Assembly (NCBI GenBank): GCA_963770895.1
Contig: CAVYRF010000001.1
Coordinates: forward strand, 928,001-992,000
Source of the DNA: an uncultured Acidobacteriota bacterium
GTDB lineage: Bacteria; Acidobacteriota; Thermoanaerobaculia; Multivoradales; UBA5704
Length of the DNA: 64,000 nt
Direction: 5' to 3'
The first letter of the stretch is position 1, and every line of letters starts with the position of its first letter. Both the position numbers and the translations under genes were made by a program. The notes beneath the pieces were generated by a model that was not told where the DNA came from, ran no database searches, and worked only from the letters and a program-made list of their open reading frames with translations. Below are positions 3,835 to 57,575 of the stretch, piece after piece.

Positions 3835-3841
3835 TCCTGGC

Positions 3842-4294: not shown

Positions 4295-4340
4295 GCCAAG
4301 CGCGCTGTGCCGCCAATCCATTGAAGAAAGGTCCACGCCT

Positions 4341-5908: not shown

Positions 5909-5947
5909 AGTTCCAGTTTCAGCGTCGGTTCACTGAGGTCAAAAACG

Positions 5948-8078: not shown

Positions 8079-8460
8079 AGTGCACTGCCTTTCTCGCGTG
8101 GTCGTTGAACATCGTGCCGGCTCGGCCGGCGACAACAGCGTTTCGCAAACATTGATGCAACTGGCAACGCGTGGTGGATGGCGAGTCAAGCGGAGCCTGT
8201 CTCGCGTTGAGTGGGTGCCCGCGCGACGGCAGGCGGTTCAATCCGCGGTTGCCGGCAACAATAGGTGCCGCGCTGCCTGCTAGCGCACGGGGCGGCTCAG
8301 GCCTGCGAAGGCGCGCAGGCTGCGCAGCGTCTCGCGGGTCTTGTCCTCGGCTGAGAGGCCCGCTTCCGGCGCGATCAGGGTTGGAAACTGGCGGGCGTGG
8401 GCGCCGCCTGCCCGTTACTCGGCTCCTTGGGCGCCTTGAACACCATGCGAAGGCGCCGGC

Positions 8461-9996: not shown

Positions 9997-10079
9997 ATCG
10001 CCTCCTTCAAAGGGCGCTCTCGAAGTGATGATTCATGGCCGCTCCGTGCAACCGGCCATCGTCCGATCGTGCAGGTCGT

Positions 10080-11075: not shown

Positions 11076-11269
11076 GACACCTCCTTCTGCCGGGAGCGCC
11101 AGCGCGGATGGCGGGGACGCCGCCTGTCATCGATCTCTCTCTCAGACGGACGCGTTCGGCGCTTTCGCACGGCGGGCGGCCGGCCGCGCTGGCCCGCATA
11201 GGCGGCCCCGGAAAGCTGTGCTATCAATCCCTCCCGCATGGTCCTGTTCGACGTGTTGGGGCTCGCCAG

Positions 11270-12727
11270 ATGGCGGCTCGCGGGGCGAGGGGCGGCGTGG
11301 GGCGCCGGGTGACGGGCGGCGACCAGGCCGTGGGTGTGGAGCGGCGGGCGTTCAAGCTGGTGGCGGTGGCCGGTGAGGATGCCGCGGCGCTCGACGCGGC
11401 GGCGCGGGAGGCGGCGGCGCGGCTCCGCGCGTCGCCCGCCGCGGAGCTCGGCAGGCTGGCGGCGGCCCTGCGGCGGGACGGGCCGGCGCCCAGGCACCGG
11501 CGCATGGTGGTGTGCCGGGAGCCAGGCGCGGCGATCGCGGCGTTGACGGGTGCCGTCGGCCCTGGGGCGGCGCGGGTGTGGAGCGGGGTGGCGGGGCGGC
11601 GGGCGCCGGCGGTGTCGTTCCTGTTTTCGGGGGTCGGCGATCAGTATCCGGGGATGGCGCACGGACTCTATCGGCAGGAGCCGGTGTTCCGCGCCGCCGT
11701 GGATCGGTGCGCCGAGATCCTCGTCCCCTGGCTGGGGCGCGACGTGCGGGAGGTGCTGTTTGCGCCGGCGCCGGAGGCGGCCGCACCGCCGGGGGAAGCG
11801 GGCGCAGCCGCGGGGCACGGCGGCCCGCAGCGGCGGATGGATCTCCGCCAGATGCTGGGACGGAGCGGGGCGGCCACATGGGCGCCGGCCAACCCGCTCG
11901 ACCAGACCCTTTTCGTGCACCCGGCGCTGTTCACGGTGGAGTATGCGCTGGCGCAGCTGTGGATGTCCTGGGGCGTGGTGCCGCGGTCGCTCGCCGGCTA
12001 CAGCGTCGGCGAGTACGTGGCGGCGTGCCTGGCAGGAGTGTTCGAGCTCGCCCAGGCCTTGCGGCTGGTGGCGGTGCGGGCGCGCATCCTGGACGAGCTG
12101 CCGGCGGGCGCGATGCTGAGCATCTTCCTTCCGGAGGCGGACTGCGCGGCGCTCCTGGGAGAGGGCTTGTGGCTCGCGGCGGTGAACGGACCGAGCCTTT
12201 GCGTGGTGGCGGGGGAGAGCGCGGCGGTCGAGGCGCTGGCGTCGCGGCTCCAGGAGCGGCGCGTGCCGTGCCGCCGGTTGGCCGCCGGACACGCGTTCCA
12301 TTCGCCGCTGCTGGCGCCGGCGGTGGCGCCGCTGGTGCGCGAGGCGGCGGCGCTCGCGCTGCGGCCGCCGGCGGTGCCATTGCTGTCGAACGTCAGCGGC
12401 GGATGGATCGGCGCGGCGGAGGCGACGGACCCCGAGTATTGGGCGCGCCACATGTGCCGGCCGGTGCGCTTCGCGGCGGCGCTCGCCACGCTCGGTACGG
12501 GGGCGGCGCGGGCGCTGGTCGAGATCGGGCCGGGGAGCACGTTGTGCAGCATGGCTCTCCAGGGCGCCATGCCGGTGGCGCCGGTGGTGGCGGTGCCGTC
12601 GCTGCCGCACGCGCAGGACGCGGAGCCCGACCTCGAGGTGATGGTGTCGGCGCTCGGCAGGCTCTGGCTCGCGGGGGTCGAGCCCGACTGGCGGGCGTTC
12701 GACGGCGAGCACCTGGGCACCCGCTGA
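11270..12727 (+). CDS. Free-standing malonyl-type acyltransferase built like a cis-AT (KS-AT linker + AT)
   Basis: 'FLFSGVGDQYPGM', active site 'GYSVGEY' (11996-12016), 'AVNGP', 'HAFHS' (malonyl signature) and post-AT 'LGRLWLAGVEPDW'. No KS or ACP. Start could be GTG 11309. Confidence 0.88.
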   Translation: MAARGARGGVGRRVTGGDQAVGVERRAFKLVAVAGEDAAALDAAAREAAARLRASPAAELGRLAAALRRDGPAPRHRRMVVCREPGAAIAALTGAVGPGAARVWSGVAGRRAPAVSFLFSGVGDQYPGMAHGLYRQEPVFRAAVDRCAEILVPWLGRDVREVLFAPAPEAAAPPGEAGAAAGHGGPQRRMDLRQMLGRSGAATWAPANPLDQTLFVHPALFTVEYALAQLWMSWGVVPRSLAGYSVGEYVAACLAGVFELAQALRLVAVRARILDELPAGAMLSIFLPEADCAALLGEGLWLAAVNGPSLCVVAGESAAVEALASRLQERRVPCRRLAAGHAFHSPLLAPAVAPLVREAAALALRPPAVPLLSNVSGGWIGAAEATDPEYWARHMCRPVRFAAALATLGTGAARALVEIGPGSTLCSMALQGAMPVAPVVAVPSLPHAQDAEPDLEVMVSALGRLWLAGVEPDWRAFDGEHLGTR

Positions 12728-12907
12728 CCCCGCGGTGTAAAGCCGCCGGCGCGCGCGGTCCGCGGCCGGCCGGCAGGATGCCGGGACGGACCCCGATTGG
12801 GCGGCGGCCGACACTTAAGGAGAGAGGCCGCGCGGGCGAGGACAACGGTGCGGCGCCGGGTTGCGGCCGCGGGCGCCGCCGGTCGCGCAGTGGGGGATTC
12901 GAGAAGG

Positions 12908-14862
12908 ATGGATGGCCATGATGTGTTGCGAGCTTTCGCCGGCTCGGTAGCCGGGGGACCGGCGCGCATTGCTTTGCAGGCTGGGGCGCGCCGCATCTCG
13001 TATCGCGATCTCGACGAATGGACGGACGCGTTGGCCCGCGCTCTGCGGCCGGCCGGGCCGGGCGCGGTGGTCGCGGTCTGCGCCGGCGATCCGCTGGCCT
13101 GGGCGGCGGCGCTTATCGGCGTGCTCAAGGCCGGCTGTGTCTTCGCGCCGCTCGACCTGGCGCAGCCGCCGGCGCGGTTGCTGACGGTGCTGCGGCAGCT
13201 CGCGCCGCGCTGGTTCGTGGGCTCGGTGACGGAGGCGCCCGGCGGCTCCGCTGGCGGTGCAGACGATGCGGCAGAGCCGGCGGCGCTCGCGGTGCTCCAG
13301 GCTGTGGGCTGGAGCGGTGAGGTGGGGTGGTGCCGGCTCGACACGGCGCGCCTCGCGGTGACGGCGCAGCCGCCGGGCGCCGGCTCGGGCGCTGCGGCTG
13401 GGGGCGCTATCGCTCCGGGCGCTGCCGCTCAGGGCGCCGCGGCGCCGCCGCCGGCCGATCCCTGCTACGTGTTCCAAACCTCGGGGTCGACCGGCGTGCC
13501 GAAGCTGATCGCCGGGCGGTACGAGGCGATCGGGCATTTCGTGCGCTGGGAGGTGGAGCTTCTCGGACTGGGCCCCGGCGTGCGGGTGAGCCAGCTCGCG
13601 GCGCCGCACTTCGATGCCTGGCTGCGCGACGTCTTCACCCCGCTCGCCTGCGGCGGCACGGTGTGCGTGCCGCCGGCAGCCGAGGTGCGCCTGGACGCAG
13701 CGGCGCTCGCCGACTGGATCGAGCGCGAGGGCATCGAGGTGCTGCATTGCGTACCGTCGCTCTTCCACCTGGTGGCGGCGGGCGAGCTGGCGCCGGAGCG
13801 CTTCGCGCGGCTGCGCGCCGTGCTGCTCGCCGGCGAGGCGCCGGTCGCCGCGGACCTGGCGCGGTGGTTCGCCGTCTTCGGGCGGCGGGTCCGGCTGGTC
13901 AACCTCTACGGTCCGTCGGAAACCACGATGACTAAGCTGTTCCACGAGATCGTGCCGCACGACCTCGGGCGGCGCGCGATCCCGGCGGGGCGGCCGATGC
14001 CCGGCGCGGCGGTGCTGCTGGTCGACCGCCGCGGCCGCCCCGCGGCACCGGGTGCGGTGGGTGAGATCCTGCTGCGCACGCCGTACGCGGCGCTCGGCTA
14101 TCTCGGGCAGCCGGAGGCGACCGCCGCGGCGTTCGTACCCAATCCGTGGAGCGACGGCGCTGGCGACCGCGTCTACCGCACCGGCGACCTCGGCCGCCTG
14201 CTGCCGGACGGCGCGGTCGACCTGCTCGGGCGGCGGGATCAGCAGGTCAAGGTGCGCGGCCAGCGAGTCGAGATCGGCGAGATCGAAGCGGCGCTCGCCG
14301 CCCACCCCGCGGTCGCGGCGGCGGCGGTGGCGGCGCGGCGGGACGGCGAGGGTCTGCCGGCGCTCTGGGGCTTCGTGGTGACCGGCGAGGAGCTGGCGCC
14401 GCGGGCGCTGCGCGACTGGCTGCTGGCGCGCCTGCCGGCGGCGCTGATACCCGACCGCTTCGTGCGGCTGCCCGCGCTGCCGCGTCTCGGCAGCGGCAAG
14501 GTCGATCGCCGGGCGCTGGCGGCGCTCGACGTGGAACAGCCGGGCGCCGCCACGCCGCCGCTCGCGCCGCGCAATCCCACCGAGGAGCAGCTGCTGGCGA
14601 TCTGGCACGAGGTGACGGCCACCCGCGGCGCCGGCGTGCGCGACGATTTCTTTGCCGCCGGCGGCCACTCGCTCCTCGCCGCGCGCCTGCTGCTGCGGGT
14701 GCGCCACGTCTTCGGCGTCGAGGTGCCGCTGGTCGAGTTCTTCGACCACCCGACCATCGAAGATCTGGCGGCGAACGTCGAGGAGCGCATGCTGGCCCGC
14801 GCCGACCCGGCGGAGCTCGCGGCGCTGCTGGGCGAGCTCGACGGCGCCGGGGCGGCCGCGCC

Positions 14863-14866
<4 letters not shown>
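12908..14866 (+). CDS. NRPS initiation module A-T
   Basis: A-domain cores 'TSGSTGVPK', 'YGPSE', 'YRTGDL' and 'SGKVDR'; PCP 'GGHSLL'; acidic C-terminal docking helix. Pocket read by eye: DARHLALMTK. Confidence 0.93.
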
Positions 14867-28180
<13,314 letters not shown>

Positions 28181-28184
<4 letters not shown>

Positions 28185-31100
28185 CCGGCGGCGCGGCAGG
28201 CGGCGGCGAGGCGATCGCGGTCGTCGGCATGAGCGGGCGCTTCCCGGGTGCCGCGAGCGTCGCCGAGTTGTGGCGCAACCTGCGCGCCGGGGTTTCCGGC
28301 GTCCGTCCCTTGACCGACCAGGAGCTGGCGGCGGCTGGGGTCGGCGCGGCGGAGCGCGACGATCCGCGCTACGTCCGCATGGCCGGGGTGTTGAGCGGCG
28401 CCGATCTGTTCGACGCCGGGCTCTTCGGCCTGACGCCGCGCGAGGCGGAGGTGATGGACCCGCAGCTGCGGGTGTTCCTCGAATGCGCCTGGGAGGCGCT
28501 GGAGGACGCCGGGCACGACCCCGAGCGCTTCCCCGGCTGGATCGGCGTCTATGCCGGTGCGGCGCTCGGCAAGTACCTGTGGCTCAACGTCGGGCGCCAC
28601 CCGGAAGCGCTGGCCGCGGTCGGCACCTTCCAGGCGATGATCACCAACGACAAGGACTTCCTCGCCACCCAGGTCAGCTATCGCCTGAACCTGCGCGGCC
28701 CGAGCCTCGGCGTGCAGAGCGCCTGCTCGACGTCGCTCGTGGCGGTGCACCTCGCCTGCCAGGCGCTGCTCTGCTTCGAGTGCGACATGGCGCTCGCCGG
28801 CGGCGTGTCGATCAGCCTGCCCGAGCAGGGCTATCTCTACCAGGACGACGGCCTGGCATCGCCCGATGGCGTCTGCCGGCCTTTCGATGCGCGGGCGGCG
28901 GGGACCATCCGCAGCAACGGCGCCGGGGTGGTGGCGCTGCGGCGGCTGGGCGACGCGCTGGCCGATGGCGACCGCGTGCTGGCCCTGGTGCGCGGCTCGG
29001 CGATCAACAACGACGGCGCGGCGAAGGTCGGCTTCACCGCCCCTTCGGTCGGCGGCCAGGCGGAGGTGATCGCCGTGGCGCAGGCGGTGGCGGGGGTGAG
29101 CGCGGAGAGCATCGGCTACGTCGAGGCGCACGGCACCGGCACGCCGCTCGGCGATCCGATCGAGGTGGCGGCGCTGACGCAGGCGTTCGGCGCGGCGGCG
29201 GCGCGCCGCGCCAGGTGCGCCCTGGGATCGATCAAGAGCAACCTCGGTCATCTCGACGCGGCGGCCGGGGTGGCCGGGTTCATCAAGACGGTCCTGGCGC
29301 TGCACCATGGAGAGCTGCCGCCGAGCCTCCACTTCGCGACCCCCAACCCGCAGATCGATTTCGCGGCCAGCCCGTTCTACGTCAACGCCGAGCTGCGCCC
29401 CTGGCCGCCGGGGGAGCCGGGGGAGACGCCGCGCCGCGCCGGCGTCAGCGCCTTCGGCATCGGCGGCACCAACGCCCACGTGGTGTTGGAAGAGGCGCCG
29501 CCCGCGGCGGCGGTTCCGGCCCCGGCGGCGGCGGAGGCAGCGCCTGAGATCCTGTTGCTCTCGGCGCAGAGCGAGACGGCGCTGCGCACCGCGGCGGCGC
29601 GGTTGGCGGCGCACGACAGTGAAGACCTGCCGGCGATCGCCTGCACGCTGCAGCTCGGACGCCGCGCCCTCGCCTGGCGCTGGTCGGCGGTGGTGCGAAG
29701 CACCGAAGAGGCGCGGCGGCGGTTGCATCAGCTGGCGCGCGGCGAGGCGGCGGCGGTGGCGGTGGCGCGCGAGCTGCCGGCGGTGGCGCTGGTGTTTCCG
29801 GGACCGGCGGCGGTGTTGGCGGGAGCGGGAGCGGGGGCGGGCGCAGGAGCGGACGCGGACGCTGGGAGAGCGGGGATGGCCGGGCTGGCGGCGGAGCTGT
29901 ACCGCACGCGGGCGGTGTTTCGCGCCGTGGTCGAGGAGGGCTGCGCGCTGCTCGCGCCAGAGCTGGGCGACGCGGTGCGGCGCGAGATCGCCGCCGGTCC
30001 GGCATCCGGCGACGTCCGGGTTACCGGTCCTGCGTCCGCCGTCGCGGCCGAAGCCGCCGCCCCGGCACTGTTCCTGTCGCAGCTGGCGCTGGCGCGGCTG
30101 TGGCTGAGCTGGGGCGTCGAGCCGGCGGCGCTCTACGGCTACGACGGTGGCGAGGAGGTGGCGGCGTGCGTGGCCGAGGTGCTGCCGCTCGCGGCGGCGC
30201 TCGAGCTCGCGGTGCTGCGCGGCCGGCTCGCGGCCGGCGGCGAGCGAGCGGCGATCCTGGCGGCGGTGCGCGGGCTGGTCGCCGTGGCGCGCCCGCAGGC
30301 GCCGCGCATCCGCATGGTGTCGAGCGTCACCGGCGACTGGGCGGGCTGGGAGGACCTGGCGGACCTGGCGTACTGGGTGGAGCTGCTGGCGGCGCCCGCC
30401 GACACCGCCGCCGGCCTGGCGCTGCTGCGCGACGAGCCGGCGCGGGTGCTGGTCGAAATCGGCCCGCGCGGCGGAGCCGTGGCGCAGCTTCTGGCGACGG
30501 CGGGCGAGCTCTGGCGAGCCGGCGTGGCGCTGCGCTGGGAGGCGGTGCACGAGCGGCGGCGTCCGCGCCGCGCGGCGCTGCCGACCTACCCCTTCGAACG
30601 CCAGCGCTACTACCTCGAACCCCAGGTGCCCGCCGGCGGGGCGGCGATGCCGCCGGCTTTGGGCAGTGGGACGGAACAGGTGGGGAGCGGCGGCGGCCGC
30701 CGGCCGCTCGCAGAGTGGTTCCACCTCGCGTCGTGGAAGCGGTCTCTGCCGCCTCCGCCCGGCGAGGAGCCGGCGGCGACGGAGCGCCGGTGTCTCGTGC
30801 TGCTGGACGACCGCGGCGTCGGCGCGGCGCTCGCCGCCGCCCTGCGGCGCGACGGCTGGCAGGTGACGGAGGCGGCGGCGGGCGCGGCCTGGCAGCAGGG
30901 GAGCGATGGGCGCTACGTGCTGCGGCCGGGGGACGAGGAAGACTTCCGGCGCCTGTGGCGCGCGCTCGCCGGCGACGTCGGTATCGGCGGCGGCGGTCTG
31001 CCGCGGCGGGTGGTCCACCTGTGGAACCTCGGCGGCGACAGCCCCGAACCGGGGCTCGACGCGGCGCTCGACCGCTCCTTCTACAGTCTGCTGCACCTGG

Positions 31101-32701
31101 CCGGGCGCTTCGCGGCGCACCCGGGGGCGGCGGTCGAGCTGACGGTGGTCTCCGACCGCCTGCACGCGGTGGACGGCGGCGACCGGCCGCACCCTGAACG
31201 GGCGGCGCTCCTGGGCACCTGCCGCGTGCTGCCGCAGGAGCTGGAGCACGTGAGCTGCCGCAGCCTCGATCTCGACGTGGCGGGTGGCGTCGAGCAGGCG
31301 GCGGCGCTCTGCCTGGCGGAGCTCGCCGCGCCGGCGGCCGAACCGGTCGTGGCGTGGCGCGGGCCGTATCGCTGGCTGCCGAGCTGGGAAGCGGTGCCGC
31401 TCGCCGACGCGGCGCCCGGCGCCGGCCTGCGGCCGGGGGGCGTCTACGTGGTGACCGGCGGCCTGGGCGGCGTCGGCCTGGAAGTGGCGGAGCTGCTCGC
31501 CGCCGGCGGCGCCCGGCTGGTGCTCGTCGGCCGCACGCCGTTGCCGCCGCGCGAGACCTGGGACGCCTGGCTCCCAGCCCATCCCGCCGGCGACGCGACG
31601 AGCGCCCGCATCCGCCGCCTGCAGGCGATCGAGGCGCGGGGCACCGCGCTCCTCCTCGCCGCCGGCGACGTCACCGACCGCGGGCAGATGGCGGCGGTGC
31701 GCGACGCGGCGCGGCAGCGCTTCGGCGCCGTGCACGGTGTTTTCCATGCCGCCGGGATCGCCGGCGGCGGGCTTCTGGCGACACGCACGCGCGAGCAGGC
31801 GGCGGCGGTCCTGGCGCCCAAGGTCGCCGGCACGCGGGTGGTGGCCGAAGTGTTCGGCGCCGTTGCCGGGGAGGCCGGGGAGGCCGGAGCCCTCGACCTC
31901 CTGGTCCTCTTCTCGTCGCTCAACGCGCTCACCGGCGGCATCGGGCAGGCCGACTACGCCGCGGCCAACGCCTTCCAGGACGCGTTTGCGGCGGCAGCCG
32001 CTGCGGCTCCGGCGACCCCGCCGATCACCGGCCGCACGCGCGTCGTCTCCATCAATTGGGACGCCTGGCAGGGCGCCGGCATGGCGTCGGCGGCCGACCT
32101 GCCCGCGGAGCTGCAAGCCTGGCGCGCCGCGCAGCTCGCCGAGGCGATCGAGCCGGCGGAAGGGCGCGCGGCGCTGGCGCGCATCCTGGCGGCGGACCTG
32201 GTACGGGTGGCGGTCGCGACCGACGACCTGGACGAGCGCCTGCGCGCCGCCGCAAGCCTGCGCCTGAGCGCTGCCCTGGCGCTCGCCGCCGCCGCCGCGC
32301 CGCCGCACCGCAACCCGCACCCGCGGCCGGCGGTGGCACCGGCCTACGTGCCGCCGGAGACGCCGGACGAAGAGCTCCTCGCCGGCCTCTGGCAGGAGCT
32401 TCTGGGCATCGCGCCGATCGGCCGCGACGACGGCTTCTTCGAGCTGGGCGGCCACTCGCTGCTCGCCGGCCAGCTCGCCGCCCGCATCCGCCAGCAGGTC
32501 GGCATCGACCTCCCCTTGCAGGCGGTCTTCGCCCATCCCACGCCGGCGCGGCTCGCCGTGGCGATGCGCGATGGCAGCGATGGTGGCGACCGTGGCGACG
32601 GTGGCGAAGACCACCAAGGCGGGGCGGTCGGCGCCGCGCCGGTGCTGGCGCCGCGGCCCCGTATCGGACGCCGCGTGCCGTTCCCCGGGGCGTTCGAATG
32701 A
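28181..32701 (+). CDS. Type I PKS module KS-AT(inactive)-KR-ACP
   Basis: KS triad intact ([21 protein letters not shown]). AT reads GYDGGE instead of GHSxG and lacks the HAFH subdomain. KR has GGLGGVG and [12 protein letters not shown] has GGHSLL. Confidence 0.95.
28211..29502 (+). repeat. KS copy 1, near-identical to KS copy 2 (51285-52636)
   Basis: Both start 'gcgatcgcggtcgtcggcatgagcgggcgcttcccggg' and share long identical stretches (e.g. [28 protein letters not shown]). Confidence 0.9.
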
Positions 32702-35700
32702 CGGCTTCCGAAGTTGCGGCACCGCCGGCAGCCGGCGCCGCCACCGCGGCGGCGGGCGAAGAGGCGTTCGTCTTCCCGCTCTCCCTGGCGCAGGAGCGGC
32801 TGTGGTTCGTCGACCAGATGAGCCCGGGCCTGGCGGCGTACAACATCCCGCTGGCGGTGCGGCTGTGCGGCCGCCTCGACCGCGCGGCGCTCGCGGCGGC
32901 GCTCGCCGGCGTGGTGCGGCGGCACGAAACGCTGCGCACGCGGTTCGGCGTCGACGACGGCCAGCCGGTGCAGGTGATCGCGCCGGAGACCGCCGCGCCG
33001 CCCGCCGCCGCCGCCGGCGCCGCCGTCCTGCCCGAGGTCGATCTGCGCGCTCTCGGTGCGGCCAAGGCGGCGGCGGAGGCCGCGCGGCTGGCGGCGGCGG
33101 CGGCGGCGGCGCCGTTCGACCTGCCTCGCGGGCCGGTATGGCGCGCGCGGCTGCTGCGCACGGCGGCGGCGGAGCACGTGCTGCTCCTGGTGCTGCACCA
33201 CATCGCCGGCGACCGCTGGTCGCTCGGCGTGCTGCTGGCCGAGGTCGCGGCGCTGTACGTCGGGCGGCCGCTGCCGCCTCTGCCGCTGCAGTACGCCGAC
33301 TTCGCGGTGTGGCAGCGCGAGGCGCTTGCCGGCGGCGAGCTCGGGCGCCAGCTGGCGCACTGGCGCGAGCGGCTGGCCGGCGCCGCGCCGCTCGTGCTGC
33401 CGGCCGATTGGCGGCGGCCGGCGCGGGCGCGGCATCGCGGCGCGGTGGTGCGGGGCGACCTGCCGCCGGCGCTCGCCGACGCCCTGCGGCAGCGCGGCCG
33501 CGAGGCGGGGGCGACGCTCTTCATGACGCTCCTCGCCGGGTTCGTGGTGGTGCTGGCGCAACACGCCGGCGAGGACGACCTGGTCGTCGGCACCGCGGTC
33601 GCCGGCCGCGCGCGGCGTGAGCTCGAAGGACTGATCGGCTTTTTCGTCAACACCCTGCCGCTGCGTGTCGATCTGGCGGGCGAGCCCACCTTTGGTGAGC
33701 TGGTGGCGCGGGTGCGCGCCGTGGCGCTGGACGCCTTTGCCCATCAGGACGTGCCGTTCGACCGCCTGGTCGAGGAGATGCGGCCGTCCGGCGGCCTGGG
33801 GGGCGGCGGCGCCGCGCCGCCGCTGGTGCAGGTGACCTTCCTGCTGCAGAACACGCCGCTGCCCGAGCTGCGGCTGCCGGGCGTCGAGCTGGCCGAAATG
33901 TCTCTCCCCTCGCGCTTCGCCAAGTTCGACCTCGCGGTGAGCGCGGTCGAGGAGGCGGGCGGCGGCGTGAGCGTGCACTGGGAGCTCGACGCCGACCTTT
34001 TCCTGCCGGCCGGCGTCGAGCGCCTGGCACGCCAGTTTCGCACCCTCCTGGCCGCCGCGGTGGCAGCGCCCCACCTCGCGGTGTGGGACCTGCCGCTCGC
34101 CGACCAGGCCGAGACCGCGGCGCTCCTTGCCGCCTGGAACCGCGATCTGCGTCTGCCGGTGGGCGTGGCGCCACCGCTGAGCGCACCGAGCGCACCGAGC
34201 GCAGTGTCGGAGACGGAGGAGCTGGCGTCCTGGCTGTGCACGGCGGCGGCGACTGCCGCCGGGGTGGCGGCGGCGCGGGTGGCGCCGGACATGCCGTGGA
34301 GCCGGCTGGCCCTCGACTCGCTGGCGGCGGTCGAGCTGCGGCACGAGATCGCCGCGCACACCGGCGTCGAGGTGGAGCTGGCCGATCTCCTGGACGCGGC
34401 GAGCGCCGACCACCTCGCCGCGGCGATCCTGGCGCGCCAGCAGGAGGAGCGCTCCGGGGCGGCGCCGTCGACCGCGGCGATGGCGGGGGTGGCGGCGGTG
34501 GCAACCGCAGCGTGGCCGGAGCCTTCGCCGCCGGGTTCCGAACTGCCGCTGGCGGCCGGGCAGCGGGCGCTCTGGCTCATCCACCAGCTGGCGCCGGCTT
34601 CCGGCGCCTACCACATCGCCGCCGCTTTCCGCGTCCTGGCGCCGCTCGACGACGCGGCGCTGCGGCGCGCCGTGGCGACGATCGCCCGGCGCCACGCGGC
34701 ACTGCGCTCGACCTTCCACGCGCGCGGCGGCGAGCCCTACCAGACGATCCAGCCGGAGATGCCGCCGGAGTGGCGGGAGATCGACGCCACCGGGCTCGCC
34801 CTTGCAGGGCTCGGCGAACGGCTGGCCGACGAGGCGTGGCGACCGTTCGACCTGGCCCGCGGGCCGCTGGTGCGCCTGGTCTGGCTGCGCGGCGCGGCGG
34901 GCGGCGACCGGCTGCTCTTCGTCGTGCATCACCTGGTCGCCGACTTCACTTCCCTGGCGGTGGCGGCGGCCGAGCTCGGCGCGCTCTACGGCCTCGCCGC
35001 GCCCCCGCCGCCGCCGCCGCCGCCGCCGGCAGTGAGCTACGAGCAGTTCGTGCGCTGGCAGGCGGCGGCGCTCGCCGGCGAGCGCCTGGAGCGCCTGTGG
35101 GCCTTCTGGAGCGCCGCGCTCGCCGGCGCCCCCGCGGCGCTCGATCTGCCGGCCGACCGGCCGCGCCCGCCGGCGCCGAGCTACCGCGGCGGGGTCGAGC
35201 GGGCGCGCTTGCCAGGCGGCGCCGGGAGCCTCGCGTTGTTAGCGGGGGCAGGGGCGGGAGCGGGGGCGGGGGAGCGCGCGGCGACGCCTTTCGTGGCGCT
35301 CGCCGCGGCGTGGATGGGGCTCCTCCATCGCACCACCGGCGACGAAGACCTGCTCGTCGGCACGGCCACCGCCGGCCGTCCCGGGCCGCGCGCCGCGGCG
35401 GTCGTCGGCTACTTCGCCAACCCGGTCGTGCTGCGTGCCCGGCCGCGCGGCGACCAGCCGTTCTCCGCGCTGCTCGCCGAGCTGCGGGAGACGACGCTCG
35501 CCGCCTTCGCCCACCAGGATCTGCCGTTCCCGCTGCTCGCCGAGCGGCTGCATCCGGAACGCGACGCGGCGCGCTCACCGGTCTTCCAGGTGAGCCTGGC
35601 GCTCTACCGCGAGCCCGGCGGCGCGGCGGCCCCCGCGGCGCTCGCCGCCATCTCCGGTATCGCCGGCATCGCTGCCGGCGCTCCGGACGTGCCGCTCGAC

Positions 35701-38700
35701 CTCGGCGGCCTGCGGCTCGCGTCGCTGGCGCTCGACGAGCGCTGGGCGCCGTTCGACCTCAGTCTGCGCGCCGCCGAGGTGGCGGGCGACCTGGTGCTCG
35801 CGCTGCAGTTCAGCCGCGACCTTTTCGACGCCGTGACCGCGCGGCGCCTGCTCGATCACCTGGTGCGCCTGCTGGCGGCGGCGGCGGCGCGGCCGGCGAG
35901 CCGCCTCGCCGAGCTGCCGCTTCTCGCCGCCGCCGAGCGCTGGCAGCTTCTGGGCGAGTGGGCGGAAACCGCGACGGCGACAGCGCGCGCGGTCGGCCTC
36001 CCCCACCTGGTCGCCGAGCAGGCGGCGCGCACTCCCGACGCGGTGGCGGTCGTCGCGACGGCTGGCCGCCACCTGTCCTACGGCGAGCTCGACCGTCGCG
36101 CCGCCGGCCTGGCGCGGCGCCTGGCGGCGCACGGCGTCGGCTTGGACTCCCGCGTCGGGCTCCACGGCGAGCGCTCGCCGGAGCTGGTGATCGGCGCGCT
36201 CGGCATCCTGCGGACGGGTGCCGCCTTCGTGCCGCTCGATCCCGAGCTGCCGCCGGCGCGGCTGGCGTTCCAGTTGGGTGACGCGGTGGGCGCCGGCGGT
36301 GTGGTCCTGGCTGCGGACGCGCCGGCCGGTCCGCCCTGGGATGCGATGCGCGTGCTGCCGCTCGCGCTGCGCGCGGACGGCTCGGCGGGCGCTCCGGGTG
36401 CCGGGGAGGTGCCGCCGGATGGGCTGGCCTACGTGCTCTACACCTCGGGCTCGACCGGGACGCCCAAGGGGGTGATGAACAGCCACCGCGGCATCGTCAA
36501 CCGCCTGCTCTGGGGCAAGACGGTATTCCCGCTCACGGCGGCCGACCGTGTGGCGCAGAAGACGCCGGCCACCTTCGACGTCGCGGTGGTCGAGCTGTTT
36601 TCGCCGCTCGTCCAGGGAGCCTGCCTGGTCCAGGCGCGTGCCGGCGGCCATCGCGAGCCGGCGTACCTGGCGCGCTGGCTGGTCGAGCAGGCGATCACGG
36701 TGGCGCACTTCGTGCCGTCCTTGGTTCTGGAGCTGCTCGCCGAGCGCGCGCTGCCGCGGGCGGGCGCGCTCCGCCGGCTGTTGGTGGGCGGCGAGGCGAT
36801 GGCGCGCCAGCTCGCCCTGGGCGTCGAGCAGCGCTTGGCGGCGCGGCTCTACAACCTCTACGGTCCGGCCGAGGCGGCGGTCGACACCGTCACCTGGCCG
36901 TGCCGTGACCAGGCCGCGGCGCGGCCGGTGCCGCTCGGCTGGCCGGTCGCCAATACCCGCGCCTACGTGGTCGAGCACGGCGGCGAGCCGGCGCCGCTCG
37001 GCATCGCCGGCGAGCTGTGGCTCGGCGGCCCGCAGCTCGGGCGCGGCTACCTGGGGCGGCCGGCGCTGACGGCGGAGCGCTTCGTGCCCGACCCCTGGGC
37101 GGCGGCCGCCGGCACGGCGGGGGCGCGCGCCTACCGCACCGGCGACCGCGTGCGCCGGCGCTGGGACGGCGCGCTCGAATTCCTCGGCCGGCTCGACTTC
37201 CAGGTCAAGGTGCGCGGCGTCCGTATCGAGCTGGGCGAGATCGAGGCGGCGCTCGTGGCGCAGCCGGAGATCGCCGCGGCGGCGGTGCGGCTCGCGGGCG
37301 AAGCGGCGACGGCACGGCTGGTGGCGTTCGTCGTCGCGGCGCGCGGCGCGAGCGTGCCGGCAGCCGCCGAGCTGCGCCGGCGCCTGCGCCAGACGCTGCC
37401 CGACGCGATGCTGCCGGCGCGCTGCGTGACGCTCGCGGCGCTGCCGCTGACGCCGCACGGCAAGCGCGATCACGCCGCCCTGGCGCTCCTCGCGGCGGCG
37501 CCGGCGCGGCCGGCAGGCGATGCCGGCGATGTCTTCGAAGGTGGGGAGGGCGGCGCCGCCTGGGAGGCGCCGCGCGGCGCGGTCGAGGAGCTGCTGGCGG
37601 CGCTCTACGCCGAGCTCCTGCCCGACCTGGCGCCGGGGGAGATCGGCCGCGACGCCAACTTCTTCGCGCTGGGCGGCCATTCGCTCCTCGCCGCGCGGCT
37701 CGCGGCGCGCGCCGGCCAGGCCCTGGGGTGCGAGCTGCCGCTGGCGGCGGTGTGGAGCGCCGCGACGCTTGCCGACCTCGCCAGGGCGGCGGCGGCGCTG
37801 CGCGCCGCGGGCGTGGCGGAGCTCGCGCCGCTCGTGCCGGTGCCGCGCGAGGGCGAGCTGCCGCTGTCGTTCGCCCAGGAACGGCTGTGGTTCATCGACC
37901 GCCTGGAGCCGGCAACGGCGCACTACAACCTGGCGGCGGCGCTCGCCGTCCACGGCGCGCTCGACCGCCGCGCGCTCGCCCGGGCGGTGGCGGCGCTCGC
38001 CGTGCGCCACGAGGTGCTGCGCGCGCGCTTTCCGGCGCCGCTCGGCCGGCCGGTGCAGGCGATCGCCGCCACGCCTGCCGCCGCGCCGCTGCCGCTCGTC
38101 GACCTGGCGGCGCTGCCGCCTGCCGCGCGCGCCGCGGAGCTCGATCGCCGCATGCGCGACGAGGCGCGGCGCCCGTTCGACCTCGCGCGCGGGCCGCTGT
38201 TGCGCTGCCTGCTGCTCCACGCCGCGCCCGGCGAGCACCGGCTGCTGGTGACCCTCCACCACATCGTCGCCGACGGTTGGTCGGTCGGCATCCTGGAGCG
38301 CGAGCTGGGGGATCTCTACGCCGCCGGCGCCGGCAGTCGGACGCCGCCGCTGCCGGTGCTGCCCTTGCAGTACGCCGATTTCGCCGTCTGGCAGCGGCGC
38401 AGCCTGACCGACGCGGTTGCGGCCGGCGAGGCGGCGTGGTGGCGCGAGCGCCTGGCGGCGGCGCCGGCCGACCTGGCGCTGCCTTTCGATCGGCCGCGGC
38501 CGGCGGTGCCGCGCCGATACGGCGCCTCGGTGCCGGTCGCGCTGCCGCCGGCGGTGGCGGCAACCGTTGGCGAATGGGCGCGGCGGCAGCGCCTGACGCC
38601 GTTCATGGCGCTCCTCGCGGCGCTCCAGGCGCTGCTCGCGCGCTACAGCGGGCAGCCGGCGATCGCCGTCGGCGCGCCGGTCGCCGGCCGGCAGCGGGCG

Positions 38701-41700
38701 GAGCTCGAGCCCCTGGTCGGCTGTTTCGTCAACACCCTGGTGCTGGTCGGCGAGGTGGATGACGACCCGCCGTTTGCCGATCTGCTGACCCGCACGCGGC
38801 AGGCGGTGCTGGCAGCGCTGGCACATCAGGAGCTGCCCTTCGAGCGCCTGGTCGAGCTCCTGGCGCCGGAGCGGCGCGTGGGACGTCAGCCGTTCTTTCA
38901 GGTTCTCCTCGCGGTCGAGGACGCACGCCCCGCGGGTCTCACGCTCGCCGGGCTGCGCGTCGCGCGGCTGCCGCCGGCGCACGTGACGGCCAAGGCCGAC
39001 CTGGCGCTGACCGTTGCCGGCGACACGGCGGGCTTCCGCGGCGCGCTCGACTACGACCGCGAGCTCTTCGACCCGCCGACCGCGGCGCGCCTGGCGGCGC
39101 ACTGGACGACGCTGATCGCGGCCGCGGCGGCGCACCCCGGGCGCCGCCTGAGCGAGCTGCCGCTGCTGTCGCCGGGCGAGCGTGCGCAGGTGGTGGGCGA
39201 GTGGAACGACACCGCGCCGGCAGCGGCCGACGCCGCCCATGCCGCCAACGCCGCCAACCCTGCCGACAGCGCGGCCTGGCTGCCGGTGCCGGCGCAGGTC
39301 GCGGCGCGGGCGCGGCGCGCCCCCGACGCCGCGGCGCTCGTCCAGGCGGGGCGGGTGGTGAGCTACGGCGCCCTCTACGCCGCGGCGTCGTCGCTCGCGG
39401 CGCGGCTGCGGGCGTGCGGCGTCGGCCCCGAGACCACGGTCGCGCTCTGCGCCGAGCGCTCCGCCGAGCTCGCGGTCGGCCTCCTCGCCGTGCTCCTGGC
39501 CGGCGGCGCCTTCGTGCCGCTCGACCCGGCGCAGCCCGCGGCGCGCCTGGGGCGCCTGCTGAGCGACGCCCGCCCGCGCGCCGTCCTCACCCGGCGCGGC
39601 CTGCGTGATCGGCTGCCACCGGCCTGCGACGCGCCGGTGATCGAGCTGGACGCGGTGCTGGCGCCGCAAGACGTCGCGCGGCCGGACGCGCCGCCGGCGC
39701 CGCTGGCGCCAGCAGACGCCGAGCCCGCCGCCACACCTGCCGCCGCCCCTCCGGCCGCGCCAGGGCAGCTCGCCTACGTGATCTATACCTCGGGCTCGAC
39801 CGGCCAGCCGAAGGGGGTCGAGGTCTCGCACGCGGCGTTCGCCAACCTGGTCGCCTGGCACCGGCGCGCCTGGGCGCTCGCCGCGGGGACGCAGGCGAGC
39901 TGGCTTTCGGGGGTCGGCTTCGATGCCTCGGTCTGGGAGCTGTGGCCGGCCCTGGCGGCGGGCGGCACGCTCCACCTGCCGGACGACGCCACGCGGCTCG
40001 CGCCCGAGGCGCTGCGCGACTGGCTGGTGGCGCGGCAGGTCGGCATCGCCTTCGCACCGACGGCCCTGGCGGCGGCCCTGGTCGAGTCGCCCTGGCCGCG
40101 CGCGACGGCTCTCGCGGTGCTGTTGACCGGCGGCGACCGGCTGGCGGCGCGGCCGCCGGCCGGCCTGCCCTTCGCGCTGATCAACAACTACGGTCCGACC
40201 GAGGGCACCGTGGTGGCAACCGCGGGGCGCGTGCCGCCGCGCACCGTGGCGGCCCCGGCGCCACCGACGATCGGCCGCCCCATCCGCGGCGTCGCGGTGC
40301 GGCTGCTCGACCCGGCGCTGCGGCCGGTGCCGATCGGCGTGGCGGGCGAACTCTGCATCGCCGGGCTGGGGCTGGCGCGCGGCTACCGCGGGCGGCCGGA
40401 GCTGACCGCCGGGCGCTTCGTGCCCGACCCGCTGGGCAGCGCCGGTGCACGCCTCTATCGCAGCGGCGACCTCGGACGCTGGCTGGCGGCGGGCGAGATC
40501 GAGTTTCTCGGCCGGCGCGACCAACAGATCAAGCTGCGCGGCCACCGTATCGAGCCGGCGGAGATCGAGGCGGTGCTGACCGCCCACCCGGCGGTACGCC
40601 AGGCGGTGGTTCTGGCGGTGGGCGAGGGCGGCGCGCGCCGCCTGGTGGCGAGCGTCGAAGGCGTCCAGGGCGCGGTGAGCGCCGCCGATCTGCGCGCCCA
40701 CCTGCGGGCGGCGCTGCCCGAGGCGATGGTGCCGGCGCGCCTGGTGTTCGTCGAGCGGCTGCCGCTGACGGTGAACGGCAAGCTCGACCGGCGAGCCGTG
40801 GCGGTGGAGCACGCCGCGGCACTGGCGGTGACCGGTGGCGGCGGTGGCGGCGCGGATCAGGCCGCGGCGGCCGGCGCGGACGGCACGGGTGGCGCGCCGC
40901 GCGGCCCGGTCGAGGAGCTGCTGGCCGGGGTGTGGGCCGATCTGCTCGGCATCGAGGCCGCCGCCATCGGCCGCCAGGCCGACTTCTTCGCCTTGGGTGG
41001 GCACTCGCTGCTCGCCACCCGGCTGGCGGCTCTGGTCGAGCGGGCGATCGGGGTCGAGATGCCGCTTGCGGCGGTGTTCGCGGCGCCCACCCTGGCGGGC
41101 TTGGCGGCGCGGATCGCCGCGGCGCACGATGCCACGCTGCCGCCGCTGCCGCCGCTGCCGGCGCTGCCGCCGCTCATCGCCGCCGGGCGCGGCGGTCCGA
41201 GGGAGGAGGGCGGCGAGCTGGCCGCCGCCTTCGCCCAGGAGCGCATGTGGTTGCTCGACCGGTTGGCGCCGGCGAGCGGCGCCTACCACATTGCGACCGC
41301 GCTCGCCGCCGCGGGCGCACTGGACGTCGCGGCGCTGCGCAGCGCCCTGGACGCCTTCGCCGGCCGCCACGAAACCCTGCGCACCACCTTCGCCGAGCGC
41401 GACGGCCGCCTGTTGCAGGTGATCGCGCCGCCATCGGCCCAGGCGCTGCCGGTGATCGACCTGACGGCGGCGACGGCCGGCGCCGCCGCGGAGCTGCACC
41501 GCCTGGTGCGGGCGGAGGCGGCGCGGCCGTTCGATCTGGCGCGCGGGCCGCTCCTGCGGGTGACCCTGGTGCGGCGCGGGACGCGGGACCAGGTGCTCCT
41601 GGTGACGCTCCACCACATCATCGCCGACGCCGCCTCGGTGGCGGTGATGCTGCGCGAGCTCGGCGTCCTCTACGACGCAGCGCAGGCGCGCGGCGCGGAT

Positions 41701-44700
41701 CATGGCGGCGTGGTGCCGGTGCTCGCGCCGCTGCCCATCCAGTACGCCGACTACGCCCTCTGGCAGCGCGGCTGGCTGCGCGGCGAGCTGCTGGCCGGCG
41801 AGGTGGCGTGGTGGCGCGAACGGCTTGCCGGCCTGCCGCCCGAGCTGCCGCTCCCCTGGGACCGCCCGCGGCCGGCCGTGCCGCGACGGGCGGCGCACCT
41901 GGCGCGGCGGCCGCTGGCCGCGGCGGCGGCGCTCGCGGCGCTGGCGCGGGCGCACGGGGCGACGCTCTTCATGACGCTCCTCGCGGCGTTCCAGGTGCTG
42001 CTGGCGCGCCTGGGCGGCGGCGACGACGTGCCGGTCGGGACACCGGTCGCCAACCGCACGCGGCCCGAGGTCGAGGGGCTGGTCGGCCTCTTCGTCAACA
42101 CGCTCGTGCTGCGCGGCGATCTCGCCGCGGCGCCGGCCTTCGATGCCTTCCTGGCGCGGACCCGCGACGCGGCCCTGGCCGCCTACGCCCACCAGGAGGT
42201 GCCGATCGAGAAGCTGGTCGAGGCGCTGGCGCCGGTGCGCGACGCCGGCCGCCAGCCGCTGTTCCAGGTCCTGTTCACCCTGGAGGAGGCGCCGCTCGCC
42301 GGGCTGCGGCTGGGCGGCGTCGCGCTGGCGCCGCTCGCCGCCGCCCCCGCACCGGCGAAGTTCGACCTGACGCTTGCGGTGACGCGCCAGGGCGGCGAGC
42401 TGACGGCGACGCTGGAGCTCGACGGCGACCGCTTCGACGCGGCGACCGGCGAGCTCCTGGCCGACTGCTTCGCGACCCTGGTTGCAGGCATCGCGGGCAT
42501 CGCCGGCATCGCCGCGGCGCCGGCCCCCGGTGTCGACGCGCTGCCGCTTCTCGACACGGCGGCGCGGCGCGCGGTGCTGGCGGCGGCGGAGGGGGAGCGG
42601 GTGAGGCGCCCGGCGCGCGGCCTGCACGAGCTGTTCGAAGCGCAGGCCGCGCGCACGCCGGACGCGGTGGCGCTGGTCGACGCGGACCGCCACCTCACCT
42701 ACCAGGCGCTCGACGAATGGGGGAACTTGCTGGCCCACCGCCTGGCGCGGGTGGGCGTCGGCGCCGACGCCCGCGTCGGCATCTGCGCCGAACGCTCCGC
42801 GGCGATGAGCGCCGCGCTCCTCGCGGTGCTCAAGGCGGGCGGGGCGTTCGTGCCGCTCGATCCGGATCATCCGCCGGAACGGCTGGCGGGCGAGATCGCC
42901 GAAAGCGAGGCGCGGGTGGTGCTGGTCACGGCAGCCGTCGCGGCGCGCCTGCCGCGGCTCCCTGCCGGCACGGTGGTGCTGCGCATTGCGGCGCCGCCGC
43001 CGTCGCCGGCAAGCGAGCGGGCGGCGCTGCCGCGGCGGGCGGCGCTGCCCGCGGCGCTGGCCTACGTGATCTTCACCTCCGGCTCGACCGGCAGGCCCAA
43101 GGGCGTCATGGTGTCGCACGGGGCGATCCTCAATCACGAGCTGTTCGTCGCCGAGCGCTACCCGCTGAATGCCGGCGACACCGCGCTGCAGATCACGCCG
43201 TTCTCGTTCGACGCCGCGCTCTGGGAGCTCTTCACCCCGCTCGCCGCCGGCGCGCGCCTGGTGGTGGCGCGGCCGGGCGGCCATCGCGATCCGTCCTACA
43301 TCACGCGGCTCGCCGCGGCCGAGGGGGCGACGGTGCTGCAACTGGTGCCGTCGATGGCGGCGCCGCTGCTCGACGATCCGGGCATCGCCGCCTGCCGCGC
43401 CCTGCGCCTGGTGGCGTGCGGCGGCGAGCCGCTGCCCGGCGAGCTGGCCGACCGGCTGATGGCGCGCCTGGGCGTCGCGCTGGTCAACTTCTACGGTCCG
43501 ACCGAATGCGCCATCGATGCCACGAGCTGGCCCTGCCGGCCGGGCGAGGGGCGGCGGCGCGTGGTGCCGATCGGCTTGGCGCTGCCCAACGTCCGGGCGC
43601 ACGTCCTGGACGACGGGCTGGCGCCCTTGCCGGTGGGGGCGCCCGGCGAGCTCTGCGTCGGCGGCGCCTGCCTGGCGCGCGGCTACGTCGGGCGGCCGGA
43701 GCTGACCGCCGAGCGCTTCGTGCCCGACCCGTGGAGTGCCCGGCCCGGCGAGCGGCTTTACCGCACCGGCGACCGGGTACGGCGGCTGCGCGGCGGCGAG
43801 ATCGAATACCTCGGGCGGCGCGACGCGCAGGTCAAGGTGCGCGGCGCCCGCGTCGAGTTGGGCGAGATCGAGGCGGTGCTGCTCGCCATGCCGGGGGTCA
43901 GCGAGGCGGCGGTGGTGATGGCCGGCGACCAGGACGCGCGGCGGCTCGTCGCCTGTGTGGTGCCCGCCGCCGGCGCGGCGGGCGATGATGGCGGTGGTGG
44001 CGGCGGCGGCAGGCCGGGGGAGCTCGCGGCGGCGCTGCGCCGCCACTGCCGGGAGCAGCTCCCCGAGTACATGCTGCCGCAGGCGTTCGTAGTGTTGGCG
44101 CGGCTGCCGCGTCTGCCGAGCGGCAAGCTCGACCGGCGGGCGGCGGCCGCCGCGGCGGCGGGTGCTGTCGCCGACGAGAGCGCGGCGTCGGCGGACGGCG
44201 CACCGCACACGCCCTACGAGGAGATCGTCGCCGGGCTCTGGGCGGAGGTGCTGGGGCGGCAGCGGGTCGGCGTTGAGGCCGACTTCTTCGCCGACCTCGG
44301 CGGTCATTCCCTGCTTGCCGCGCAGGTGGTGTCGCGAATGCGCGAGCGTCTGGGTGTCGAGGTGCCGCTGCGTGCGCTGTTCGACGCGCCGACCGTACGC
44401 GGTCTGGCGGCGGTCGCCCTCCGCACCTCGGAGATGGCGGCGACGGCGGCGATTGCCGTTCCGCTGCTCGCGCGGCGGGCCGGAGAGGAGCCGGCGGCGC
44501 TCTCTTTCGCCCAGGAGCGGATCTGGTTCCTCACCCAGCTGACGCCCGGGCTCACCGCTTACAACATGCCGCTGGCGCTCACCCTCCACGGTGATCTGGC
44601 GGTGCCGGCGCTGGCGCGGGCGCTCGCCGCGCTCACCGCGCGGCATGAGGTGCTGCGCACGCGCTACGCGGCGCTGGGCGGCCCGCCGGTGCAGGTGGTG

Positions 44701-50700: not shown

Positions 50701-51198
50701 GCCGCGGAGCTTCGCCGCTACTGCCGCGAGCGCCTGCCGGCGCACCTGGTGCCGGCGGCGTTCGTGATGCTGCCGCGGCTGCCGCTCACCGCGAGCGGCA
50801 AGCTCGACCGCCGCGCCCTGCCTGCCCCCGAGGCTCCCGAAGCGGCGCTCGCCGGCCAGTTCGTGGCGCCGCGCAACGAGCTCGAACGCACCGTCGCCGC
50901 GATCTGGCAGGAGGTGCTGGGGGTCGAGCGGGTGGGCACCCGTGACAACTTCTTCGATCTCGGCGGCCATTCGCTGCTCCTGGTGAGCCTGCGCGACCGG
51001 CTGCGCCAGCGGCTGGGGCGCGACTTCACGCTGGTCGATCTCTTCCGCCATCCGACCGTCGCCGCCTTCGTGGACGCGCTGGCGCAGCCGGTCGCGGCCG
51101 AGCTGCCGCGCGGCGACATTGCGACGCGCGCCGCGCAGCGCGAGGCGGCGATGCGCGATCGGCGCTCGTTCCGGCCCGGCTCGAAAGGTGGGCGATGA
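32698..51198 (+). CDS. NRPS, 6166 aa: C-ACP-(C-A-T)x5 (Ser-clade variant, Leu, Gln-like, Gly, Ala)
   Basis: ATG at 32698. The first C is followed directly by an ACP-type carrier (LALDSL). Pocket codes read by eye: DVVHLGLVDK, DAWFLGNVVK, DAWQAGFIDK, DILQLGLIWK and DLFNNALTYK. No E or MT domains seen. Confidence 0.95.
48986..50820 (+). repeat. Copy 2 of near-identical end-of-C + Ala A-domain segment (copy 1 at 22735-24480)
   Basis: Direct sequence comparison by eye; same DLFNNALTYK pocket. Confidence 0.9.
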
Positions 51199-57100: not shown

Positions 57101-57575
57101 GTTCGACACCCGCGCCCGCACCCGCACCGGCGACGTCGACGAGCTGCCGGAGGACGACGTGGAAATCCTCTTTGCCCTCTACGGCGACGATCTCGGATTG
57201 ACGCTCGCCGAGCTCCAGGCGCTCCCCGCCGCCGCGCTCCTGCCGTTCGTCGTCGAGCGCGGCCACAGCGGCGGTTTTCTCGCGCCCGACTTCGGCGTCG
57301 AGCAGGCGCGCCGTCTGCTCGCGGTGTACAAGCGCAACCGCCGCCTCATGTGGGATTACGAGCCGCGCCCCTATCCCGGCTCCCTCGTCCTGCTGCAGGC
57401 CCGCGACCGCCGGCGCGGCGAAGCCGCACCCTTCGGGCTCGGCTGGGATCTCTTCGCGCGCGGCGGCCTCGACGTCGAGATCGTCCCTGGCAACCACAAC
57501 AACCTGATGGCCGCGCCCCGTGTCGCCGCGGTCGCCGCCGCCGTCGCGCGCCGTTTCGCCGCCCTCGTGCCCTGA
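51195..57575 (+). CDS. Terminal type I PKS module KS-AT-KR-ACP-TE
   Basis: KS triad intact. AT has GQG, GHSVGE and HAFH (malonyl). KR has GGLGGLG and YAAAN. ACP has GGHSLL. TE has GWSMGG and GNH. Confidence 0.96.
51285..52636 (+). repeat. KS copy 2, near-identical to KS copy 1 (28211-29502)
   Basis: Direct sequence comparison by eye. Confidence 0.9.
53895..54040 (+). repeat. Degenerate 15-nt tandem repeat inserted in frame near the end of the PKS-2 AT
   Basis: Encodes [40 protein letters not shown]. Confidence 0.75.
54735..54929 (+). repeat. Degenerate 15-nt tandem repeat (13 units) inserted in frame in the PKS-2 KR structural subdomain
   Basis: Encodes [65 protein letters not shown]. Confidence 0.8.

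Follow-up and report, generated by a model that had tools for sequence, protein, structure and literature searches.

Why would a biosynthetic cluster keep a free-standing acyltransferase (AT) ahead of a polyketide synthase (PKS) module whose own AT is dead, and what does that enzyme load? The question is raised by a 64,000-nucleotide stretch of DNA from an uncultured Acidobacteriota bacterium (the window; contig CAVYRF010000001.1, positions 928,001 to 992,000). It holds a 46-kb hybrid nonribosomal peptide synthetase (NRPS)-PKS cluster that runs from the lone AT through an adenylation-thiolation (A-T) didomain, NRPS-1, PKS-1, and NRPS-2 to PKS-2 with its thioesterase (TE). The original prediction was that the lone AT had been copied out of a PKS-1-type module and now loads the acyl carrier protein (ACP) of PKS-1 in trans with malonyl. 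The reading that we somewhat favor is that PKS-1 is a duplicated malonyl module without a working AT of its own and that a recruited AT with the motif GYS would load PKS-1 in trans with hydroxymalonyl. The features of the cluster are listed here (C, condensation; KS, ketosynthase; KR, ketoreductase).

11270..12727, + strand: free-standing AT with a KS-AT linker, a truncated post-AT linker, GVGDQ, GYSVG, Arg at Ser+25, and HAFH
12908..14866, + strand: A-T initiation didomain, code DARHLALMTK
14863..28184, + strand: NRPS-1, with four C-A-T modules and a reading frame broken by a frameshift in G-runs near 17995-18015
28181..32701, + strand: PKS-1, with intact KS, dead AT, KR, and ACP; PKS-2 paralogue
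29489..30595, + strand: AT region of PKS-1, with a KS-AT linker, an AT remnant that lacks GQG and the small subdomain and has GYDGG in place of GHSxG, and the post-AT linker LPTYPF
32698..51198, + strand: NRPS-2, C-ACP-(C-A-T)x5, with no FAAL before the ACP, unlike its orthologues
51195..57575, + strand: PKS-2, KS-AT(GQGAQ, GHSVG, HAFH)-KR-ACP-TE; closest relative, PKS-1

The dead AT of PKS-1 and the intact lone AT

The PKS-1 AT had been described as dead within an otherwise intact module, and this was confirmed. The remnant reads GYDGG at 30137-30151 and has a AGAGAGAG tract at 29819, where GQG is expected. Alignments show that about 69 residues of the small subdomain are deleted; the remnant covers 172 of 297 AT profile positions, and most of the large subdomain remains. 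The Cys/His/His of the KS are intact (SACSTS at 28718, EAHGT at 29123, and KSNLGH at 29234), as are the KR motifs GGLGGVG and YAAAN and the ACP motif GGHSL at 32447. The AT of PKS-2 is intact, with GQGAQ, GHSVG at 53307, and HAFH at 53601. A model of the PKS-1 KS-AT remnant reached a pLDDT of 36 from a two-row alignment, and no fold or docking claim rests on it.

Two related genomes, G065 and G451, carry the whole cluster with its genes in the same order; in both, the PKS-1 AT is dead and that of PKS-2 is intact. Thus, judging from sequence, the dead state is inherited. An assembly error is unlikely to explain the deletion: the Ser, GQG, and the small subdomain are all missing in four of four orthologous PKS-1 proteins examined. 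Contigs from two other sequencing runs span the remnant with a net excess of 126 and 96 nucleotides, less than the roughly 207 nucleotides missing, and the location of these gaps relative to the remnant is not visible in those alignments. A search of the family genomes with the remnant region matched only the genome itself, at an over-strict threshold. Elsewhere in this genome (G000), two further modules have ATs with Ser-to-Gly changes (GHGIG and GHGLG) and an intact KS cysteine (G000:C2:4727132-4733941 and G000:C1:1169797-1186632).

The lone AT has the motifs expected of an active enzyme where they were predicted: GVGDQ at 11630, GYSVG at 11996-12010, and HAFH at 12290-12301. An alternative GTG start at 11330 or 11336 is possible, and there is no KS upstream (window 1-11300). 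The linkers had been predicted to be of cis type on both sides. The KS-AT linker fold is present in both the sequence and the predicted structure, but the post-AT linker is only partly kept, as the protein stops before LPxYPF. An RRRxxLP tail is still found at the C terminus of 3 of 10 members of the lone-AT family, and this shortening together with the longer tails fits erosion of a cis domain. The lone AT scored 240 bits to cis ATs versus at most 101 bits to FabD or PksD, and its model (pLDDT, 74.7) best matched the folds of SpnD-AT and ZmaA-AT. These results and the trees described below support the prediction that the lone AT is cis derived rather than FabD-like. Proofreading acyl hydrolases of the PedC/PksD type belong to the FabD-like AT2 clade and have an altered active-site Arg. 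The lone AT does not fit this type, given the Arg at Ser+25 in all 10 family members and the weak PksD score (101 bits).

The other nine members of this family are stand-alone proteins of 449 to 509 amino acids, 57 to 65% identical to the lone AT, and GYS is present in all 10. A stand-alone orthologue occurs in 3 of the 92 family genomes besides its own; other matches lie within long PKS frames. In one of the three, G404, the lone AT is followed by the A-T didomain and an NRPS, and the contig ends before PKS-1. For another pair of orthologues, the dead-AT PKS-1 of P0122 and the lone AT of P0004, the longest contigs are equal in length. Wherever the complete cluster is assembled (three of three genomes), the lone AT occurs with an AT-dead PKS-1, which makes trans loading in a mixed cis/trans line plausible. 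The mixing of cis and trans acylation had been predicted in this form, with the trans part recently evolved; "recently" is not shown, as the orthologues are only 57 to 65% identical.

In Actinomycetota, it is common to find a free GYS AT next to KS modules whose own AT is absent or degenerate. Thus, the arrangement is recurrent and not unique. Four actinobacterial loci (L081, L085, L088, and L089) combine an AT-less KS-KR module, an aminotransferase, a TE, and a free GYS AT with an FkbH cassette inside the cluster, and the idea of a discrete hydroxymalonyl AT could be tested more cleanly there.

Origin of PKS-1 and of the lone AT

Where did the lone AT come from? Its cis-type linkers and the Tyr that precedes the nucleophile position in the remnant of its own cluster are what an origin by excision or copying from a PKS-1-type module has in its favor. 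The trees do not agree with this origin. In a quick AT tree of 83 rows, three remnants and three PKS-2 ATs formed one clade (SH-aLRT, 100), and the lone-AT clade (100) was separate, among ATs with GYS and G[VL]G[DE][QH] (SH-aLRT, 97). A more careful mixture-model tree, built from 40 rows and the 345 columns covered by the remnants, with FabD, an AT on a long branch, and 41 further rows omitted, again joined the remnants to the PKS-2 ATs (100/99) and recovered the GYS group (92/95). The only outgroup in the AT trees was the FabD-like protein of this genome, and reference sequences of trans-ATs, ZmaF, and ClbG were absent. On this footing, the AT phylogeny placed the lone AT among GYS ATs and not with FabD, as predicted, but apart from the remnant.

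Forcing the lone ATs and the remnants into one clade was rejected in the approximately unbiased (AU) test (p-AU, 6.5e-5). The lone AT is 29% identical to the remnant, versus 45% between the remnant and the PKS-2 AT. PKS-1 also pairs with PKS-2 in both the KS and KR trees; the PKS-1 KS is sister to the cis PKS-2 KS (88% over aligned columns, in a tree without any trans-AT KS), and the two KS regions share 89.7% DNA identity over 1,016 nucleotides. Because the AT, KS, and KR trees and the AU test agree, PKS-1 arose, as far as sequence can tell, by duplication of a GHS-type module, and the lone AT has a different source. Excision from a PKS-1-type module is refuted under the model used, and we give it almost no credence. 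As a separate observation, the KS regions at 28210-29500 and 51284-52636 are 85 to 90% identical in DNA and group by genome, which suggests gene conversion between PKS-1 and PKS-2.

The shared Tyr, taken originally as an uncommon clue, did not hold up. GYS is common in this genome (8 of 25 ATs with G[HY]SxGE). The nucleophile motif is GYDGG in the remnant here, GDGVG in G065, and GHGAG in both G451 and P0122, the sister of the remnant, which thus has His and not Tyr. Because the three orthologous remnants lack the Tyr, its sharing is best described as drift. Among 63 rows of the GYS group, free and cis forms alternate at least seven times, five of them forced by starred branches; these rows are a nonrandom sample, and five were called free from protein length alone.

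Extender unit and partner of the lone AT

What, then, might a GYS AT carry? ZmaA-AT, which uses hydroxymalonyl-ACP, and ZmaF, which uses aminomalonyl-ACP, both have GYS, and ATs that use coenzyme A (CoA) substrates have GHS (PMC4207774, Table 2). The same source proposes that, for ACP-borne extenders, a hydrophobic MXW carrier motif takes the place of RXR. Among solved structures, ZmaA-AT was the top match of the lone-AT family profile (366 bits; next, 337) and ranked only fifth for the PKS-2 AT.

We found that GYS ATs are linked to genes for ACP-borne extenders. Of 10 gene-called GYS-AT loci, 8 have extender-cassette dehydrogenase genes adjoining the AT, and the other 2 are a cis module and a 4-kb contig. 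In a test sample of 301 Streptomyces genomes, the GYS pattern matched in 14, which were reduced to 11 since one match encodes Thr and two genomes belong to earlier-chosen loci. All 11 are ATs, and for 10 of them the ACP of a full extender cassette lies no more than 8 kb away; these cassettes consist of HCDH, ACAD, and ACP genes with either FkbH (8 cassettes) or a SerRS-like ligase (2 cassettes). The exception is a degenerate AT. A cassette ACP was present anywhere in only 64 of 288 other Streptomyces genomes (Fisher p = 5e-6, inflated by kinship). Three of the 10 cassette-linked ATs are AT-ACP-FkbM fusions. In Herpetosiphon, FkbH lies about 4 kb beyond the last locus covered of a GYS-AT array, and the genome has been described as having hydroxymalonyl-ACP genes and a 16-module PKS (PMC3368417). 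Free GYS ATs with HCDH, ACAD, ACP, and a SerRS-like ligase also occur at L038:6513-11239, L049:5796-11047, L154, L156, and about 20 similar actinobacterial loci. There, FkbH or an adenylation domain is replaced by a SerRS-like amino acid:[ACP] ligase, which scores below the cut-off of its family, and by sequence these loci are probably an alternative route to aminomalonyl-ACP.

The genome has exactly one FkbH-HCDH-ACP-ACAD cassette (G000:C2:3526326-3529826), which is on a different contig from the cluster. Its locus (L113, G000:C2:3524107-3529826) is joined to methionine-salvage genes and lies outside any PKS cluster. Of the 92 family genomes, 77 have a cassette FkbH and 78 have the GYS pattern: 71 have both, 7 GYS only, 6 FkbH only, and 8 neither. 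Thus, a cassette FkbH is present in 71 of 78 GYS-positive versus 6 of 14 GYS-negative genomes, which are kin and not independent. The pattern itself undercounts, recovering four of the eight GYS ATs of this genome. G065, G451, and G404 all have a cassette FkbH, and the eight double-negative genomes were still negative when searched again. Among the GYS-only genomes, the cassette of G444 is frameshifted, HCDH-ACP-ACAD is present in G406 and G430, and G417 shows a fragment where a contig ends. TIGR01686 matches in G401, G448, and G406 were not counted as FkbH, being a long protein of about 30% identity; the match in G460 is probably the same protein.

These observations suggest the following course. 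According to the trees, one KS-AT-KR-ACP module with a GHS malonyl-type AT was duplicated into PKS-1 and PKS-2. The PKS-1 copy lost its AT chemistry and kept the linker and large subdomain, presumably as a scaffold. An AT of the GYS lineage, split off another cis module, was recruited as the first gene of the cluster; it would take hydroxymalonyl from the ACP of the G000:C2:3526326-3529826 cassette and transfer it to the PKS-1 ACP in trans. The KS and KR of PKS-1 could then make a 4-amino-2,3-dihydroxy acid unit in mid-chain from the aminoacyl end that arrives from upstream, and PKS-2 would build a statine-type unit from malonyl-CoA in cis before the TE. If the arrangement serves to change the extender, the loss of a working cis AT makes sense. 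Taken over all readings, the partner of the lone AT is very likely the PKS-1 ACP; that its substrate is hydroxymalonyl is a less secure claim that we think somewhat more probable than not.

Several observations weigh against hydroxymalonyl. The lone-AT family keeps HAFH/HPFH and lacks the MXW carrier motif in all 10 members; 8 of 10 have P/S-x-R there (P-C-R and S-C-L variants included). The cassette-linked Streptomyces GYS ATs likewise keep HAFH and an Arg-bearing carrier motif without MXW. The PKS-1 KR is like that of PKS-2, and the Asn of its SSxN motif occurs in 0 of the 47 GYS modules and in 4 of the 67 GHS modules; the KR motif was rejected as an independent marker for an alpha-hydroxy substrate, since the PKS-1 KR has no GYS-module signature. 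No cassette gene lies within 11.3 kb upstream or 26.5 kb downstream of the cluster, and no cassette was found in GYS-positive G401, G448, and probably G460. Support for the GYS clade is moderate, and in one tree a GHS AT falls inside it. GYSVG is also present in GbnB, a succinyl-CoA starter AT that accepts malonyl too according to a preprint (bioRxiv 10.64898/2026.04.24.720606), so GYS alone is not diagnostic of an ACP-borne extender. No free AT was found near the AT-dead, KS-intact modules at G000:C2:4727132-4733941 and G000:C1:1169797-1186632; thus, dead modules need no local partner. Finally, the cluster copy in this genome may be damaged (the G-run frameshift and missing FAAL described below).

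Would malonyl-CoA be enough, with the lone AT loading PKS-1 in trans and simply replacing the dead AT? HAFH, the Arg at Ser+25, the Arg-bearing carrier motif, the PKS-2-like KR, the lack of a cassette in the cluster, and malonyl transfer by the GYSVG-bearing GbnB all fit this account. However, GYS ATs are linked to cassettes, ZmaA-AT is the best solved relative, and there would seem to be no reason to drop a working malonyl AT yet keep a foreign one in three of three complete clusters. We therefore regard malonyl as unlikely. Trans loading, as originally predicted, is plausible, but malonyl as its substrate is doubtful for a lineage that tracks hydroxy- and aminomalonyl-ACP cassettes.

A different extender carried by an ACP, methoxymalonyl or aminomalonyl, would suit the AT-ACP-FkbM fusions (3 of 10) and SerRS-like ligases (2 of 10) among the cassette-linked Streptomyces ATs, and the genome has one free FkbM-like open reading frame (ORF) (C1:1063467-1064714). 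However, the cassette at G000:C2:3526326-3529826 contains no methyltransferase, and the genome has no match to the SerRS-like ligase and only one cassette-type ACP, which makes another such extender highly improbable.

The partner can also be questioned: FabD or the PKS-2 AT might load PKS-1, leaving the lone AT to serve a starter or internal ACP, another cluster, or editing. The lone AT is the first gene and adjoins the initiation A-T didomain, GbnB and EtnB offer a precedent, NRPS-2 has an orphan internal ACP, and a dead module elsewhere in the genome has no lone AT. Against this, there is no free ACP in the cluster flanks (11.3 kb upstream and 26.5 kb downstream), the internal ACP of G065 and G451 has its own FAAL and the lone AT is still kept, GbnB has GAWH versus HAFH/HPFH in the lone AT, and the lone AT is found together with the dead PKS-1. 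We judge that such a role outside PKS-1 is quite unlikely, and hydroxymalonyl loading of PKS-1 in trans is still the reading that we prefer.

More broadly, it is a serious if tentative possibility that the family keeps one genome-wide hydroxymalonyl-ACP supply outside its clusters for many GYS ATs, which repeatedly break free and reprogram AT-dead malonyl modules in trans. If this is true, the cluster is a natural case of extender exchange through trans complementation, and its history can be traced. A cis module would become trans fed through AT death after duplication and recruitment of a foreign AT, not through excision of its own AT. The foreign AT would bring new chemistry and would be a portable candidate hydroxymalonyl AT for engineering, of a kind absent from the list of confirmed non-malonyl discrete ATs in a 2018 review (PMC6164871). 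For genome mining, ATs with GYS and G[VL]G[DE][QH] should then not be annotated as malonyl specific even with HAFH, and product predictions would change for many family clusters, as the motif is found in 78 of 92 genomes.

The remaining cluster genes bear on the product and on the state of this copy. The A-T code DARHLALMTK suggests Glu or Asp, on code positions and meanings that we assume, and the NRPS-1 module feeding PKS-1 has in its orthologues a code that we take to be Pro-like. Because NRPS-1 is one continuous ORF in G065 and G404, the single frameshift in the G homopolymers at 17995-18015 is probably an assembly error. NRPS-2 starts with C-ACP-C and no loading domain (window 32698-35000), whereas G065 and G451 have a separate C gene and then FAAL-ACP-C; a FAAL located internally, behind a C domain, is already unusual, and without it the line in this genome may be disabled or rerouted. 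Directly 3' of the cluster is an ADOP-family duplicated permease (57610-60114, - strand), a possible exporter. Its presence, together with close relatives from the Thermoanaerobaculia, marks the host as an acidobacterium. Upstream, two ORFs without a Pfam match encode a Cys-rich, probably secreted protein of 511 amino acids (8461-9996, - strand) and a 331-amino-acid membrane protein with a short C-terminal domain (10080-11075, - strand).

Comparison with known systems

In a literature search whose coverage left out most subscription papers, neither this cluster nor a discrete hydroxymalonyl AT turned up. The discrete ATs that the 2018 review names as confirmed for a non-malonyl unit are KirCII, OzmC, and ZmaF (PMC6164871). 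OzmC (methoxymalonyl-ACP) and KirCII (ethylmalonyl-CoA) resemble the lone AT in being discrete ATs for a non-malonyl extender at one module. However, they serve canonical trans-AT lines, and OzmC (325 amino acids) is DpsC-like and not cis derived with linkers. GbnB and EtnB, succinyl starter ATs, are also free ATs with GYSVG; according to the preprint, GbnB has GAWH and a dedicated free ACP, in contrast to HAFH/HPFH and no free ACP in the flanks here (bioRxiv 10.64898/2026.04.24.720606).

Canonical trans-AT PKSs (PksC, DszD, and PksD type) share with this cluster an AT on a separate gene. However, their discrete ATs are FabD-like and without linkers, whereas the lone AT is cis-like with a KS-AT linker. 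All of their modules are AT-less with a short docking remnant; here, the PKS-2 AT is intact and the PKS-1 remnant covers 172 of 297 positions. The PKS-1 KS, in a tree without any trans-AT KS, is the sister of a cis-module KS. This case says nothing about how canonical trans-AT PKSs arose.

There are precedents for hybrid lines that mix cis and trans loading and contain a free AT as well as dead ATs, namely those of ClbG (PMC8402462) and ZmaF (PMC6164871). In zwittermicin A, a hybrid NRPS-PKS product, ZmaF and ZmaA-AT (PDB 4QBU) share with this cluster GYS, a free AT beside cis ATs, and an ACP-borne extender. ZmaF differs in being specific for aminomalonyl, and its FabD-like numbering (G90) implies that it has no KS-AT linker, which the lone AT keeps. 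Hydroxymalonyl is loaded there by the cis AT of ZmaA itself, whereas here the AT is free and the cassette is on another contig. ClbG, which acts with ClbC, ClbK, and ClbO in colibactin, is likewise a free AT for an ACP-borne extender, with AT-deficient modules beside cis-AT modules (PMC8402462); its extender is aminomalonyl, made within the island, and the likeness is by description and not by sequence. The MXW carrier motif and extender-ACP genes inside the cluster are missing here; a free, catalytically intact AT, judging by its motifs, and an AT-dead, KS-intact module in a hybrid cluster are present. By analogy, the lone AT and dead PKS-1 probably function as ZmaF and ClbG do in mixed cis/trans hybrids, with a switch of extender rather than a plain move from cis to trans.

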